From TPA_inf: Saccharomyces (taxonomy: Eukaryota): 64,000 nt of DNA. The notes under the pieces were generated by a model that was not told the origin of the DNA, did no database searches, and saw only the letters and a list, made by a program, of their open reading frames with translations. The stretch spans positions 288,001-352,000 of the forward strand of contig BK006947.3 in NCBI GenBank assembly GCA_000146045.2. Reading direction: 5' to 3'. Position 1 is the first letter of the stretch, and every line of letters starts with the position of its first letter. The position numbers and the translations under genes are program-made. Below are positions 44,597 to 51,347 of the stretch, in pieces.

Positions 44597-46867
44597 ATGT
44601 ATAATAGCAGCACCAATCATCATGAGGGTGCACCTACTTCAGGACATGGCTATTATATGTCCCAACAACAAGACCAACAGCATCAACAACAACAACAATA
44701 CGCCAACGAAATGAATCCGTATCAGCAAATTCCTAGACCGCCTGCTGCAGGATTTAGTAGCAACTACATGAAAGAGCAAGGCTCTCATCAATCGTTACAA
44801 GAGCATTTACAACGTGAGACAGGTAACCTTGGCAGCGGTTTTACAGACGTTCCAGCCCTGAATTATCCAGCCACACCACCACCACATAATAATTACGCAG
44901 CTTCAAATCAGATGATCAATACCCCACCGCCGTCGATGGGTGGTCTTTATAGACATAATAATAATTCCCAGAGCATGGTTCAGAACGGTAATGGGAGTGG
45001 GAATGCACAATTACCCCAATTATCACCGGGCCAATATTCTATAGAGTCAGAGTACAATCAAAATTTAAATGGCAGTTCTTCTAGTAGTCCGTTCCACCAA
45101 CCGCAAACGCTACGGAGCAATGGGTCATATTCAAGCGGGTTAAGGAGTGTGAAAAGCTTCCAGAGGTTACAACAAGAACAGGAAAATGTCCAAGTTCAGC
45201 AACAACTTTCCCAAGCACAGCAACAAAATTCCCGGCAACAACAGCAACAACTTCAATACCAGCAGCAGCAACAACAACAACAACAACAGCAACATATGCA
45301 AATACAACAACAACAACAGCAGCAACAACAGCAGCAGCAATCACAATCTCCCGTTCAGAGCGGCTTTAATAATGGTACCATATCAAACTATATGTACTTT
45401 GAAAGACGACCAGATTTGTTGACTAAAGGAACGCAAGATAAAGCAGCAGCTGTAAAGTTGAAGATTGAGAACTTTTACCAATCCTCTGTTAAATACGCCA
45501 TTGAAAGAAATGAAAGAAGAGTGGAGTTAGAAACAGAACTAACTTCTCATAATTGGTCAGAAGAAAGGAAATCTAGGCAATTGAGTTCTTTGGGTAAAAA
45601 AGAGTCACAATTTTTAAGGCTGCGTAGAACGAGATTATCGTTAGAAGATTTCCACACTGTGAAAGTCATTGGAAAAGGGGCATTTGGTGAAGTCAGACTG
45701 GTTCAGAAGAAAGACACCGGAAAAATATATGCAATGAAAACTTTATTAAAATCCGAAATGTACAAAAAGGACCAATTAGCACACGTCAAGGCTGAAAGGG
45801 ATGTTCTGGCTGGAAGTGATTCTCCATGGGTGGTTTCGCTATATTACTCATTCCAAGATGCTCAATACTTATATTTAATCATGGAATTTTTGCCCGGTGG
45901 TGATTTGATGACCATGCTAATCAGGTGGCAACTATTTACAGAGGATGTTACTAGATTTTACATGGCTGAGTGTATTTTGGCCATCGAAACCATTCATAAA
46001 TTAGGATTCATTCACAGAGATATTAAACCAGATAATATTTTGATCGATATTAGAGGTCATATAAAATTATCTGATTTCGGGTTGTCTACGGGGTTCCATA
46101 AAACTCACGACTCAAACTACTATAAAAAGCTTTTGCAACAAGATGAGGCAACTAATGGTATTTCCAAGCCAGGTACTTACAATGCAAATACAACCGATAC
46201 TGCAAATAAAAGGCAAACAATGGTTGTGGATTCTATTAGTCTAACAATGTCAAACAGGCAACAAATTCAGACATGGAGAAAATCACGTCGTTTAATGGCA
46301 TATTCTACCGTAGGTACACCAGATTATATTGCTCCTGAGATATTTTTATACCAAGGTTATGGGCAAGAGTGTGATTGGTGGTCACTTGGAGCAATTATGT
46401 ACGAGTGTCTGATTGGTTGGCCTCCATTCTGTTCCGAAACTCCACAGGAAACGTACAGAAAAATCATGAATTTTGAGCAAACTCTACAATTTCCTGATGA
46501 TATTCATATCTCTTATGAAGCCGAAGATCTAATCCGTCGACTATTAACTCATGCAGACCAAAGACTTGGTAGACATGGTGGTGCAGATGAAATAAAAAGT
46601 CATCCATTTTTTCGCGGTGTTGATTGGAATACAATCAGACAAGTAGAAGCACCGTATATACCAAAGTTGAGCTCCATCACCGATACTAGGTTCTTCCCAA
46701 CCGATGAGTTGGAGAATGTTCCAGATTCCCCAGCTATGGCACAAGCTGCCAAACAAAGGGAACAGATGACAAAGCAAGGTGGAAGTGCGCCAGTCAAGGA
46801 AGATTTACCTTTTATTGGCTACACTTACTCCAGATTTGACTATTTGACAAGAAAAAATGCGTTGTAG
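44597..46867 (+). CDS. CBK1: NDR/LATS-family Ser/Thr kinase (RAM network), 756 aa
   Basis: The motifs [12 protein letters not shown] and DFGLSTG are present. The long activation-segment insert is typical of NDR kinases, and the N-terminal region is polyQ. Confidence 0.9.
45232..45340 (+). repeat. CBK1: CAA/CAG (polyglutamine) microsatellite in the CBK1 N-terminal region
   Basis: The translation reads [36 protein letters not shown]. The codons are mixed CAA/CAG. Confidence 0.95.
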
Positions 46868-47818
46868 GGACGCGTTAAGGACATTCCTCTTTATTCAAGT
46901 ATTTATCTATGGATGTAGAACGCACATTATGAATAAATAACTGCACTTTTTTCGGGAAAAAAATTACCAAAATAGACATCAGCTTTATCATATGTCTCCT
47001 TGAAGTATTTGAACGACCACCTTTCCGAAGACAATGTACCTAGTAACCTACAGGCTGCCCTTAATCCATACATCCACGCACAATAGCACAATCTCGGTGA
47101 TGGCTGGTTTTTTTACCTTGAAAAACAAGAAAAATGGCTGATGTAGTTGAAAAAGGTAAAAGAGATGGCAGATCAGGGGACGATTTTGTAGAGGAAGTAT
47201 CTATATATATCGACCATATTGAAAAAAATATGAAATAACATACACACGTGTAAGAATATATAATTTTTGTTATTAACACGTCGTAAAAGAGAAAAGATCG
47301 TGCTTTCATCACGCGCTTCCTCTCGGCCTTTCGAACTATAAATTATAAGATGATCCAGTCTTACAATACTGAATGAAACTCAGGGAAGACGATAGCGGAG
47401 GTTCGACAACCGATCACTGTAAAACCTACACTTTCAAGTTCATTAATCGTCGCTTGAAAGATCGTCATAACCAAATATTGCTAGAAACAAAAGCGTTCGG
47501 GATAGGTCAAACCATGATGAACTAGTTCCACACGCATATCTTAAAGCGTGCTATTTTTTAAAAAGGGCAAATTTAGGAATGTCTGACGGAATCCCTAATC
47601 ATCTTTGGCTTTTCCCTTCACTCCCTTCTTTTACCGACGATGGTTTGAAGGAAAGAGAAAAATGAGCAATAGGAAAATTCAGTAGTCGATTTCCATTTCA
47701 ATTCCCTATTGGGTAATGTGGCGGCGAGGGCTAAACATTCGGTATCATTGATTCAATGTTCTCACAATGTTCAAATTCTCGGATCGGGTATCCCTAATTG
47801 GGATCTCTTTCCAGAGGA

Positions 47819-47823
47819 AGGGG
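47819..47823. promoter_or_regulatory. YGP1: STRE (AGGGG, within GAAGGGGCC) in the YGP1 upstream region, about -725
   Basis: Read directly. A second identical GAAGGGGCC lies at 48108-48116. Confidence 0.55.
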
Positions 47824-48110
47824 CCTTGATGTGGGATTGAAGACACATGAGTTTTTTTCTCACCGTCGAAACTTTTGCTTACCCGTAAAACATCGGCCAT
47901 TCGTTGGTTTATTATGTGACTTTTTTGTGACTTTTTTTTTTGCGAAGTTTTCTCGTCATCCGCGGAAGATCCGGCGGGCGAAAAAGTCTCTCACTTTTAC
48001 CCAATCGGGGCATGTTATGTGGACATGTTATGTGTCCAAGAGACACATGAGCCCAAAAAGGGTACACTGTCTAAATAGTTTACCCTTTACGAATCGAAAC
48101 TTCTCGAAGA

Positions 48111-48115
48111 AGGGG
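48111..48115. promoter_or_regulatory. YGP1: Second STRE (AGGGG, within GAAGGGGCC) at about -435 from YGP1
   Basis: Read directly from the sequence. Confidence 0.55.
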
Positions 48116-48544
48116 CCGAAAATTAGCGCAGAAGTTGACGAAAGTTTATACTTTTCCTAATGGAGAGGCTCAGGAGCTGAAAAGGGATATATTCGTACTC
48201 TATTGCATCTTCAAACTCCGAAGAATCTCAGTAGGGAGTGAAGCCGGCTTCTCGATGCTACAGTTCAACATCGATACTTTGAAGAAAGAAAGCGCCTATT
48301 ATATCTCTTTTACCCTATTAGTAATAATTAGGAAAAAGGGAGAAAAAAGTACCTCACTAAAAAAACCATCATCTCTGAAATATAAAAAGCTTGATAGAGG
48401 GTGACATTTGCTAGAACTTCTGCTGTGTTCTCTTGGGTTATTGCTCTTATTGAATATCCCTTCTATTTCTTTCTTGCTTGTAAAAAATCAGCTCAAAAAA
48501 CATCTACAGGATTAATCGTCAGTTAAGTAATACAGTAATAGAAA

Positions 48545-49609
48545 ATGAAGTTCCAAGTTGTTTTATCTGCCCTTTTGGCATGTTCATCTGCCGTCGTCGC
48601 AAGCCCAATCGAAAACCTATTCAAATACAGGGCTGTTAAGGCATCTCACAGTAAGAATATCAACTCCACTTTGCCGGCCTGGAATGGGTCTAACTCTAGC
48701 AATGTTACCTACGCTAATGGAACAAACAGTACTACCAATACTACTACTGCCGAAAGCAGTCAATTACAAATCATTGTAACAGGTGGTCAAGTACCAATCA
48801 CCAACAGTTCTTTGACCCACACAAACTACACCAGATTATTCAACAGTTCTTCTGCTTTGAACATTACCGAATTGTACAATGTTGCCCGTGTTGTTAACGA
48901 AACGATCCAAGATAAGTCATCCGCCGGTGCCGTTGTTGTTGCCAACGCCAAATCTTTGGAAGCTGTCTCATTCTTCTTCTCTATCATTTTTGACACCGAA
49001 AAGCCTATTGTTGTCACTGAAGATTCCGCTTATGCCATTCCAGTCGCTAACAATAAGAACGCTACCAAACGTGGTGTCTTGTCCGTCACTTCTGACAAAT
49101 TAGTGTACTCCGGTGTCTTCACTCCACCTACTGCTTGTTCTTACGGTGCTGGTTTGCCTGTTGCTATCGTTGATGACCAAGACGAAGTTAAATGGTTCTT
49201 CGATGCTTCTAAGCCAACTTTAATCTCTTCTGACTCGATTATCAGAAAGGAATACAGTAACTTCACTACTCCTTATGGTCTATTAGAAAACGGTGTTCCA
49301 ATTGTTCCAATTGTCTATGACGGTGGTTACTCTTCCAGTTTGATTGACTCCTTGAGTTCTGCCGTTCAAGGTTTGGTTGTTGTTTCTTCTGGTTCTACCA
49401 ACTCAACCTCATCTACTATTGAAAGCACTGAAATCCCAGTCGTATATGCTCAAGCTAACACTCCATTAAACTTTATTGACAACAAAGATGTTCCAAAGAA
49501 CGCTGTGGGTGCTGGTTACCTATCCCCAATTAAGGCCCAAATCTTGTTGTCCATTGCTGCCGTTAATGGTGTCACCTCCAAGTCCGCTCTGGAAAGCATT
49601 TTCCCATGA
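48545..49609 (+). CDS. YGP1: Secreted, heavily N-glycosylated cell-wall glycoprotein (asparaginase-like), 354 aa
   Basis: The signal peptide MKFQVVLSALLACSSAVVAS is followed by many N-x-S/T sequons. Length is 354 aa, and the promoter is long with STRE elements. Confidence 0.85.
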   Translation: MKFQVVLSALLACSSAVVASPIENLFKYRAVKASHSKNINSTLPAWNGSNSSNVTYANGTNSTTNTTTAESSQLQIIVTGGQVPITNSSLTHTNYTRLFNSSSALNITELYNVARVVNETIQDKSSAGAVVVANAKSLEAVSFFFSIIFDTEKPIVVTEDSAYAIPVANNKNATKRGVLSVTSDKLVYSGVFTPPTACSYGAGLPVAIVDDQDEVKWFFDASKPTLISSDSIIRKEYSNFTTPYGLLENGVPIVPIVYDGGYSSSLIDSLSSAVQGLVVVSSGSTNSTSSTIESTEIPVVYAQANTPLNFIDNKDVPKNAVGAGYLSPIKAQILLSIAAVNGVTSKSALESIFP

Positions 49610-50477: not shown

Positions 50478-51347
50478 TCAGAATACGCCTGGCCCTGTAA
50501 TCCTTTGGCTCACCAACATTCGATGGACACCTTTATATCTTCTAATAACAGTGAATAATAGACACAATACGAAGAAAAACCCAGCGGTAACCATGTAAAC
50601 GGTACCACTTACGCCATAAGCTAAATAGATCAGAATGGTAGAGACTTTGACAAATAGCTCGAAAGCTTTAGCGAACATTAGTCTTATCCAATTTAAGTTG
50701 GGTTCATTGCCATCTCTACTTTTCATAATATGTTTTATCACAGGTGAAGAGTAAAATACAATGATGTTATGAAACTTTCCAAGCAACCCTAATTTACCAG
50801 TATCCTTATATGCTATTAATGTCGTGCCACCAGAACCAAATATCTTGGCAAATTTCCAGTATCCCACGATTTCGATTATAAAATCATTCTCTGAAAAGGT
50901 CATTGAATTGAACCCGCTCCTTAATATGTTGTATACGGAAAATGGGAATAAAATTAGCCCAATAAAGTAATCTAAAATGAATAAATTTCTAAGAAAAGTT
51001 CTGAGAGGGCTCTGCTGCCTTGCTGTGAATGGGGAATCGGCCGTATTGGCGTTGGTGGCTCTTATAGTGTCTGCATTGATTCCTCCATTTCCGTTTGTGG
51101 TTGCATCCATATTAGCTGCTCTATTTATATTTGAAGTAGAACTCATATTCCTCCTAAGGGAGTTAAATATTCCATCGATTGCTTGCTGTACATCCTGCTG
51201 TAGTTCTTGCTGAGATTGCTCGGTTACAGGTGAAGGCTCTCTACTATGCCTCGTTTCCGATTCTTCTAGAAATCGCTGAAACAGATAATCATCATTATCG
51301 TCTCTTTCTGTCCAATTACTGCGGCGATGATTTTGAGGCCTCGCCAT
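50478..51347 (-). CDS. ASI2: Inner-nuclear-membrane Asi complex subunit, 289 aa
   Basis: The 289-aa length fits, with C-terminal transmembrane segments and matching synteny. Confidence 0.65.

Follow-up and report, generated by a model that had tools for sequence, protein, structure and literature searches.

YGP1 of Saccharomyces cerevisiae is preceded by a long stretch of DNA with several repeated motifs, which raises the question of where its promoter lies in this region and which of the motifs are under constraint. We addressed it in a window of 64,000 nucleotides (nt) of contig BK006947.3 (positions 288,001 to 352,000 of the forward strand), to which all coordinates below refer. An earlier reading of the sequence alone (the sequence-only reading) had called the YGP1 upstream region unusually long. 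It is 1677 bp long, compared with a median gap of ~425 bp, and ranks third largest among the 30 gaps between open reading frames (ORFs) of at least 150 amino acids (aa) in the whole window. All the motif sequences listed in that reading were found in the YGP1 promoter where it had placed them. We assign a probability of about 0.85 to the interpretation that 47800-48120 covers the upstream portion of the upstream activating sequence (UAS) of YGP1, a dense composite promoter extending from approximately -760 to -155. The YGP1 upstream region is an ordinary composite stress promoter that has already been largely characterised.

A conserved block in the CBK1–YGP1 spacer

The spacer was aligned in five species, S. 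cerevisiae, S. mikatae, S. kudriavzevii, S. arboricola and S. uvarum, and S. eubayanus was used as a sixth. Within-species variation was assessed in 13 S. cerevisiae strains, namely the window and 12 further strains, and chance expectations were obtained from 1000 dinucleotide-preserving shuffles of the sequence. One metagenome assembly (L006, ENA ERZ27273419) was excluded from the comparison because it is S. cerevisiae itself in a noisy assembly. Its spacer is 99.3% identical to that of the window, and indel noise splits its CBK1 into several called genes.

Conservation is bipartite, with a poorly conserved distal half of the spacer and a proximal half that carries the regulatory region. In the distal spacer (46868-47667), 19% of the alignment columns were identical in the five species, compared with 57% in the block at 47868-48390, where identity reached 74% in 50-bp bins. 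By the same measure, the YGP1 coding sequence scored 64.5% and the YGP1–ASI2 spacer 20.5%. Polymorphism among the 13 strains was concentrated in the distal half and lower in the conserved block: of the 56 alignment columns that vary across the spacer, 17 lie within 47560-48420 and 11 within 47868-48390. This ~520-bp block is under purifying selection, and it holds stress response elements (STREs) together with invariant Reb1, Pdr1/Pdr3 and Mcm1-type sites.

The length of the spacer is similar across the genus, at 1689-1757 bp in S. mikatae, S. kudriavzevii, S. arboricola and S. uvarum and ~1721 bp in S. eubayanus. Little constraint is apparent in its distal half. FLO11, HO and IME1 are known for long yeast promoters that integrate signals. 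YGP1 resembles them in its kilobase-scale upstream region, its many sites, its nutrient, stress and cell-cycle inputs and its conserved spacer length; unlike them, it has only ~700 of the 1677 bp of its spacer conserved.

In Nakaseomyces glabratus, the CBK1–YGP1 synteny is kept and the spacer measures 2149 bp. This spacer (L007, 1852-4000) contains 9 AGGGG/CCCCT sites and 10 Mcm1-type boxes, in a sequence that cannot be aligned with that of Saccharomyces. More generally, the distant promoters that we compared (N. glabratus, N. dairenensis and a Logan contig) were unalignable and gave short word matches only. Neither the tandem element, nor the 10-mers, nor the canonical TCCGCGGA described below was recovered upstream of these orthologues. 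Single TCCGYGGA-type matches were present in N. dairenensis and in the comparison sequence L009.

Stress, drug-response and Mcm1-type elements

The sequence-only reading had taken two AGGGG sites for STRE cores, and they match the published STRE1 and STRE2 to the base; both are functional Msn2/Msn4 STREs. Sato et al. 2026 (PMC13450799) constructed fourteen 60-bp deletions over the 960-bp YGP1 promoter, as well as two STRE deletions. Diauxic induction was lost on deletion of STRE2 and weakened on deletion of STRE1, and it was nearly gone in msn2Δ msn4Δ. Each of the deletions del7 to del11 (-600 to -300) cut induction below 1.5-fold. The region removed in del7 (-600 to -540, 47945-48005 in the window) was needed for log-phase, Puf5-dependent expression, which was ascribed partly to Haa1 (PMC13450799). 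Replacement of the YGP1 STREs with Nrg1 sites eliminated promoter output in the work of Rajkumar et al. 2016 (PMC5041464), in which the STREs drive the low-pH response. The function of the STREs is thus known from published deletions, and the comparative map is the new part.

The AGGGG of STRE1 is kept, within ~5 bp, in four of the five other species and is lost in S. kudriavzevii. That of STRE2 is also kept in four of the five and reads AGGAG in S. mikatae, so that the losses are complementary. The 9-mer common to both STREs is improbable by chance, but outside S. cerevisiae the bases around STRE1 are not conserved. YGP1 resembles the general stress promoters of the Msn2/Msn4 regulon, such as those of CTT1, HSP12 and DDR2, in having AGGGG upstream of a TATA-containing stress and starvation gene, and in losing its induction in msn2Δ msn4Δ and on STRE deletion (PMC13450799, PMC5041464). 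Unlike them, it has only two canonical AGGGG sites within 960 bp, both far from the ATG (-726 and -434), and much of its output needs ~300 bp of other conserved sequence (del7 to del11).

Several elements of the promoter were absent from the sequence-only reading: a putative post-diauxic shift (PDS)/STRE site, a putative heat-shock element (HSE) adjoining STRE2, an excess of Mcm1 boxes, a Pdr1/Pdr3 element (pleiotropic drug response element, PDRE) and a TATA box (Table 1). The site at 47790 is ATCCCTAA in S. cerevisiae and S. mikatae and reads (A/T)CCCCTAA, that is, an STRE (TTAGGGG), in S. kudriavzevii, S. arboricola, S. uvarum and S. eubayanus. The spacer has two T(T/A)AGGGAT PDS matches, at 47591 and 47790 (P = 0.016), and only the latter is conserved. 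The putative HSE GAAacTTCtcGAA has three perfect units in S. cerevisiae, S. mikatae and S. kudriavzevii and two in the other species, and Hsf1 and Skn7 motifs are listed for del9 (PMC13450799 Table 6). The composite of HSE and STRE2 at 48096-48117 is conserved. We also observed a 19-nt repeat, AAAAGGGA(T/G)A...GTAC, at 48180-48198 and 48334-48352, 154 bp apart, with both copies conserved in the five species. Together with 47790, STRE1 and STRE2, these copies may be the five 'STRE' positions implied by a chromatin immunoprecipitation (ChIP) design (PMC5041464).

A Reb1 site had also been called, and the perfect conservation of the 14-bp GCTTACCCGTAAAA in six species supports the assignment of this putative site. 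The sequence TTACCCGT at 47879-47886 fits the Reb1 core TTACCCG(G/T), and poly(dT) tracts flank it at 47852-47858 and 47932-47941. A literature search for YGP1 with Reb1, Yox1 or non-coding RNA returned nothing specific.

The CGG-N6-CGG element that had been noted downstream of the Reb1 site is present, but it is intact in only two of the five other species. In S. arboricola, S. uvarum and S. eubayanus, CAG or AAG takes the place of the second CGG, and the invariant part of the element is the overlapping TCCGCGGA. It is better described as a Pdr1-bound PDRE. The PDRE is the sole copy in the spacer (shuffle P = 0.013), and it is invariant in the six species and in the 13 S. cerevisiae strains. 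Pdr1 CUT&RUN experiments placed YGP1 among the genes with a peak and a type-A PDRE (bioRxiv 10.1101/2023.08.11.553033), and YGP1 was bound in Pdr1 ChIP-exo experiments in acetic acid (PMC12016514 Table S1). The PDRE motif is also listed for YGP1 in PMC13450799, with no test of Pdr1/Pdr3 there, and we found no published report of Pdr1/Pdr3 dependence of YGP1 expression. The CGG element overlaps a Haa1 response element (HRE), CCGGCG, at -574 (PMC13450799 Table 2), a motif kept in only two other species, and it includes a 'weak Swi5 site', cGGCGGG (PMC5041464). With a perfect type-A PDRE under a Pdr1 CUT&RUN peak, YGP1 is similar to promoters of the Pdr1/Pdr3 network (PDR5, SNQ2 and RSB1); unlike theirs, its PDRE is single and lies at -586. 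The Hap1-type consensus CGGnnnTAnCGG is a CGG-N6-CGG with TA. A Hap1-type site at CGGAAGATCCGG was rejected, as it has AT in place of TA and lacks the second CGG in three species.

Boxes of the Mcm1 type (CCYWWWNNRG) were enriched about five-fold in the spacer, with 8 observed and 1.55 expected (P < 0.004). They were enriched in all five Saccharomyces species compared, in N. glabratus and in L009. No full 16-bp early cell cycle box (ECB) palindrome was present among them. In the box at 48156-48165, the T at 48158 of the window is a minor allele, with C in 9 of the 13 strains and in the other species. YGP1 is an Mcm-cluster, Hog1-regulated gene (PMC7209309), and Mcm1 binding evidence is listed for it (PMC13450799 Table 3). 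It resembles the M/G1 promoters of the 'MCM cluster' (MCM genes, CDC6, CLN3 and SWI4), which have Mcm1/ECB elements, in its several conserved CC(N6)GG boxes with TT(A/T)CCC left halves, in its membership of the Mcm cluster and in the Mcm1, Fkh1 and Fkh2 binding evidence listed for it. Unlike the boxes of those promoters, its boxes are not full ECBs and are spread over 600 bp among stress elements.

Some further observations concern these boxes. At 48141-48165, a forkhead-like AAAGTTTATA is followed by a Mcm1-like TTTCC(T/C)AATG(G/A)AG. The two motifs, a candidate Mcm1–Fkh composite behind the M-phase periodicity that has been reported, are conserved together in S. mikatae, S. kudriavzevii, S. 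arboricola and S. uvarum; in S. eubayanus, AAAGTTTATA is altered to CAGTTTCTG. An TTACCCAAT-type motif, the left half of the ECB/Mcm1 box, occurs three times (47704-47716, 47997-48009 and 48310-48318). The third copy is degenerate in S. cerevisiae; the window reads CCCTAT there, and 9 of the 13 strains read CCGTAT. Enrichment of the 8-mer TTACCCAA was seen in N. glabratus and in four of the five Saccharomyces promoters, S. arboricola being borderline.

These elements suggest how the promoter may work. According to the published experiments, Msn2/Msn4 induce YGP1 at glucose exhaustion through STRE2 and, to a lesser extent, STRE1. Reb1 and the flanking poly(dT) tracts may keep the distal regulatory region free of nucleosomes, and the Reb1 site might in addition block read-through from CBK1. 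Pdr1/Pdr3 at the PDRE could account for a share of the weak-acid and drug responses, and the Mcm1 boxes for periodicity from M to M/G1. The STRE, PDS and HSE sites would integrate stress and nutrient signals, with Hsf1-type factors adding a heat input.

The comparative map adds modestly to the deletion analysis of PMC13450799. It points to Pdr1/Pdr3, acting at the PDRE, as a candidate for the factor still missing from the Puf5-responsive 60 bp, and it confines the so far unexplained effect of del8 to 50 bp that hold the tandem element and a Mcm1 box. Two pieces of the block may hide unassigned regulation, a suggestion that we make tentatively and consider rather doubtful. The PDRE at 47959-47966 might mediate the Puf5-dependent effect of -600 to -540 instead of, or beside, the poorly conserved Haa1 site, and the tandem element at 48010-48035 between Mcm1 boxes might bind a factor not yet linked to YGP1.

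Table 1. Features of the YGP1 upstream region, with positions in the window; del5 to del11 are deletions of PMC13450799
Feature	Position	Strand	Remarks
CBK1–YGP1 intergenic region	46868..48544	+	1677 bp, from CBK1 stop 46867 to YGP1 ATG 48545
Conserved regulatory block (UAS)	47868..48390	+	-677 to -155 from ATG; overlaps del5-del11
PDS-type site TTAGGGAT (Gis1/Rph1-type)	47790..47797	-	29 bp upstream of STRE1
STRE1 GAAGGGGCC	47817..47825	+	AGGGG core 47819-47823; -729..-722 of PMC13450799 is 47816-47823 in the window
10-mer copy 1 GACACATGAG	47842..47851	+	E-box-like CACATG
Reb1-type site in invariant block GCTTACCCGTAAAA	47877..47890	+	TTACCCG at 47879-47885; identical in six species
PDRE TCCGCGGA (Pdr1/Pdr3 element)	47959..47966		Perfect palindrome, type A, everted repeat; in del7
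CGG-N6-CGG CGGAAGATCCGG	47963..47974 (element 47963..47978)	+	Overlaps PDRE, Haa1 HRE and weak Swi5 site
Mcm1-type box CCCAATCGGG within TTACCCAATCGGG	48000..48009	+	Matches CCYWWWNNRG; kept in 3/4 species
Tandem 13-mer element, four YATRT pentamers	48010..48035	+	In del8 (-540..-480)
10-mer copy 2 GACACATGAG	48042..48051	+	Holds CACATG
Mcm1-type box CCCAAAAAGG	48052..48061		In all species; CCTAAAAAGG in S. arboricola, CCCAAATAGG in S. eubayanus
Putative HSE GAAacTTCtcGAA	48096..48108		Three alternating nGAAn units; directly adjoins STRE2
STRE2 GAAGGGGCC	48109..48117	+	AGGGG core 48111-48115, -434..-430 of PMC13450799
Mcm1/ECB-like box CC(T/C)AATG(G/A)AG	48156..48165	+	In all species; preceded by highly conserved AAAGTTTATA
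PDS-like AAAAGGGAT, AGGGAT core	48183..48188	+	Kept in 4/5 other species; GGGGAT (STRE-like) in S. arboricola
TATA box TATAAAA	48381..48387	+	At -164; kept in four other species compared, TATAAAT in S. arboricola

Repeats in the block and alternative explanations

Two copies of a 10-mer, GACACATGAG, had attracted attention by their spacing of exactly 200 bp, and conservation of the 10-mers and of this spacing across Saccharomyces had been named beforehand as the check. Both the sequence and the spacing failed it. The repeat extends to an 11-mer, AGACACATGAG (from 47841 and 48041, 200 bp from start to start); repeated 11-mers are expected ~0.75 times per shuffle, and the pair alone is therefore not significant. 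Neither 10-mer is kept in any of the five other species, and CACATG is kept only in S. kudriavzevii for copy 1 and only in S. mikatae for copy 2. The aligned positions lie 189-203 bp apart between species. Even among S. cerevisiae strains the spacing varies from 200 to 203 bp, because a T-tract at ~47931 varies in length. The two copies are best read as a chance repeat specific to S. cerevisiae. The locus can serve as a calibration case, in which spotting repeats by eye chose this chance pair, and the elements under constraint are the STREs, the invariant Reb1 site, the Pdr1-bound PDRE, the Mcm1 boxes and the HSE.

A few points weigh against our interpretation of 47800-48120. AGGGG is not enriched, with 3 observed and 2.1 expected in shuffles, and the assignments of Reb1, Mcm1, HSE and PDS factors are deduced from consensus sequences and conservation. 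Because del8 takes out the tandem element together with 10-mer copy 2 and the Mcm1 box, the effects of the three cannot be told apart in the published 60-bp deletions. Both 10-mers are fixed in the 13 S. cerevisiae strains, and YEASTRACT binding evidence for Tye7, Ino2 and Pho4 at YGP1 is listed in PMC13450799, together with a Tye7 motif in del8. These last points would fit the idea that the GACACATGAG copies are recently gained, functional E-boxes (CACATG) bound by basic helix-loop-helix (bHLH) proteins (Tye7, Ino2/Ino4 or Pho4) in S. cerevisiae only, as would the count of CACATG/CATGTG, with 2 observed and 0.39 expected (P = 0.05 in shuffles). The 'Tye7' entry for del8 in PMC13450799 Table 6 probably refers to the CACATG of copy 2, because no other CANNTG hexamer was found in del8. 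We nevertheless regard such E-boxes as improbable. Each CACATG occurs in only one of the five other species, although the bases next to it are well conserved, and the spacing of the copies varies even within S. cerevisiae. Among bHLH sites, the inositol/choline-responsive element (ICRE) reads TTCACATG, and Pho4/Cbf1 recognise CACGTG. The two CACATG cores have GACACATG as flanks, with GACAC where the ICRE has TTCAC. Fixation of 20 bp says little when only 56 columns in 1677 bp vary among 13 strains, and the ChIP evidence for Pho4 or other bHLH proteins at YGP1 might come from a canonical E-box, CACGTG, at 47245-47250 (-1300), which is kept only in S. kudriavzevii and S. arboricola. It is also very unlikely that the spacings of 199 and 200 bp are relics of a segmental duplication or of a nucleosome-phased array. 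Two separate motif pairs, ATCCCTAAT and AGACACATGAG, do lie ~200 bp apart, but the upstream member of each pair lacks conservation, and the distance between the copies changes from species to species. Local alignment of 47580-47800 with 47801-48060 was no better than in shuffles (score 20 versus 17.1 ± 2.3, P = 0.12), and the diagonals at 198-202 bp showed 21-27% identity. A 200-bp segmental duplication is effectively refuted, as it left no trace in the alignment. We thus retain the reading of the pair as a chance repeat.

The tandem 13-mer had been described as containing CACATG/CATGTG half-palindromes. The tandem itself is present, but these hexamers are found only in the two 10-mers, and the tandem is without any CANNTG hexamer or full E-box. 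With a period of 13, the units at 48008-48020 and 48021-48033 are identical at 12 of 13 positions. The element is present in six species as YATRT-type pentamers and is degenerate in S. arboricola and S. eubayanus; the best-kept part of the region in S. eubayanus is TTATGTGTCCAAG. Consensus sites for alpha2/a1 half-sites, Met31/32, Rap1, forkhead and HMG-box proteins were compared with the tandem and rejected for mismatches or wrong spacing, and Rim101 was rejected for TCCAAG in place of GCCAAG. A 7-bp inverted repeat, ATGTGTC-CAAGA-GACACAT (48030-48048), joins the end of the tandem to 10-mer copy 2. Its arms have one or two mismatches each in the other species, and TTATGTGTCCAAG is its best conserved part. 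A second tandem repeat, TTATGTGACTT/TTTTGTGACTT, lies at 47912-47933, next to the T-tract of polymorphic length. It includes, on the minus strand, a match resembling a middle sporulation element (MSE), GTCACAAAA, and is not conserved outside S. cerevisiae.

Could the tandem 13-mer be an independent cis-element with its own factor, possibly a Mcm1 cofactor, that causes part of the del8 phenotype? An exact 12-base tandem run is unusual (shuffle P = 0.003), and its presence in all six species indicates that it predates the radiation of the genus. It also sits between two Mcm1-type boxes, in a segment whose deletion brings induction below 1.5-fold (PMC13450799). However, 65% of its columns are identical in the five species, which is no higher than in the surrounding block (0.57-0.62). 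Its repeats have degenerated in S. eubayanus and S. arboricola, it was not found upstream of the more distant orthologues, and del8 removes the Mcm1 box and 10-mer copy 2 as well. We therefore see a separate role for the tandem as possible but on balance unlikely. Far less credible is a small protein or structured non-coding RNA encoded in the conserved block in place of a promoter. Its conservation is near that of coding sequence, and TTG-start ORFs of 120 and 89 aa overlap it. Nevertheless, ~30 single-base indels break the frame and variability by codon phase (76/74/74) shows no 3-base periodicity, so that the block is not coding. Scans of 46500-48900 with Rfam, at a permissive threshold, and for tRNAs gave zero matches, and RNAalifold on the block returned a positive, penalising covariation term with many broken pairs, without covariation support for a structure. 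Furthermore, the published constructs leave only two untouched 60-nt bins that contain transcription start sites (TSSs) (PMC13450799). As del1 to del11 tile -960 to -300, both TSSs would lie within ~300 nt of the ATG. The block is thus best explained as the composite promoter of YGP1.

Neighbouring genes and motifs of the distal spacer

The ORF map places the kinase gene CBK1 at 44597-46867 and YGP1 at 48545-49609, the product of the latter being 99% identical to S. cerevisiae Ygp1p. ASI2 follows at 50478-51347 on the minus strand, giving the gene order CBK1–YGP1–ASI2. No exact autonomously replicating sequence (ARS) consensus was present in the spacer when it was checked for a replication origin. 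A scan for bacterial-type promoters and terminators gave chance-level matches and was discarded as irrelevant.

Two ATGGCTG motifs, ATGGCTGGT at 47100 and ATGGCTGAT at 47134, lie 233-326 nt past the CBK1 stop codon. They are identical in the five Saccharomyces species, within the poorly conserved distal spacer, and are absent from N. glabratus. Each starts a tiny ORF of variable length (5-34 aa; MAG... and MAD(V/I)(V/I).KG.R...), and ATGGCTGGT also matches a Swi5/Ace2-type GCTGGT. For their role, a CBK1 3' element, a binding site for a protein and micro-ORFs are all conceivable.

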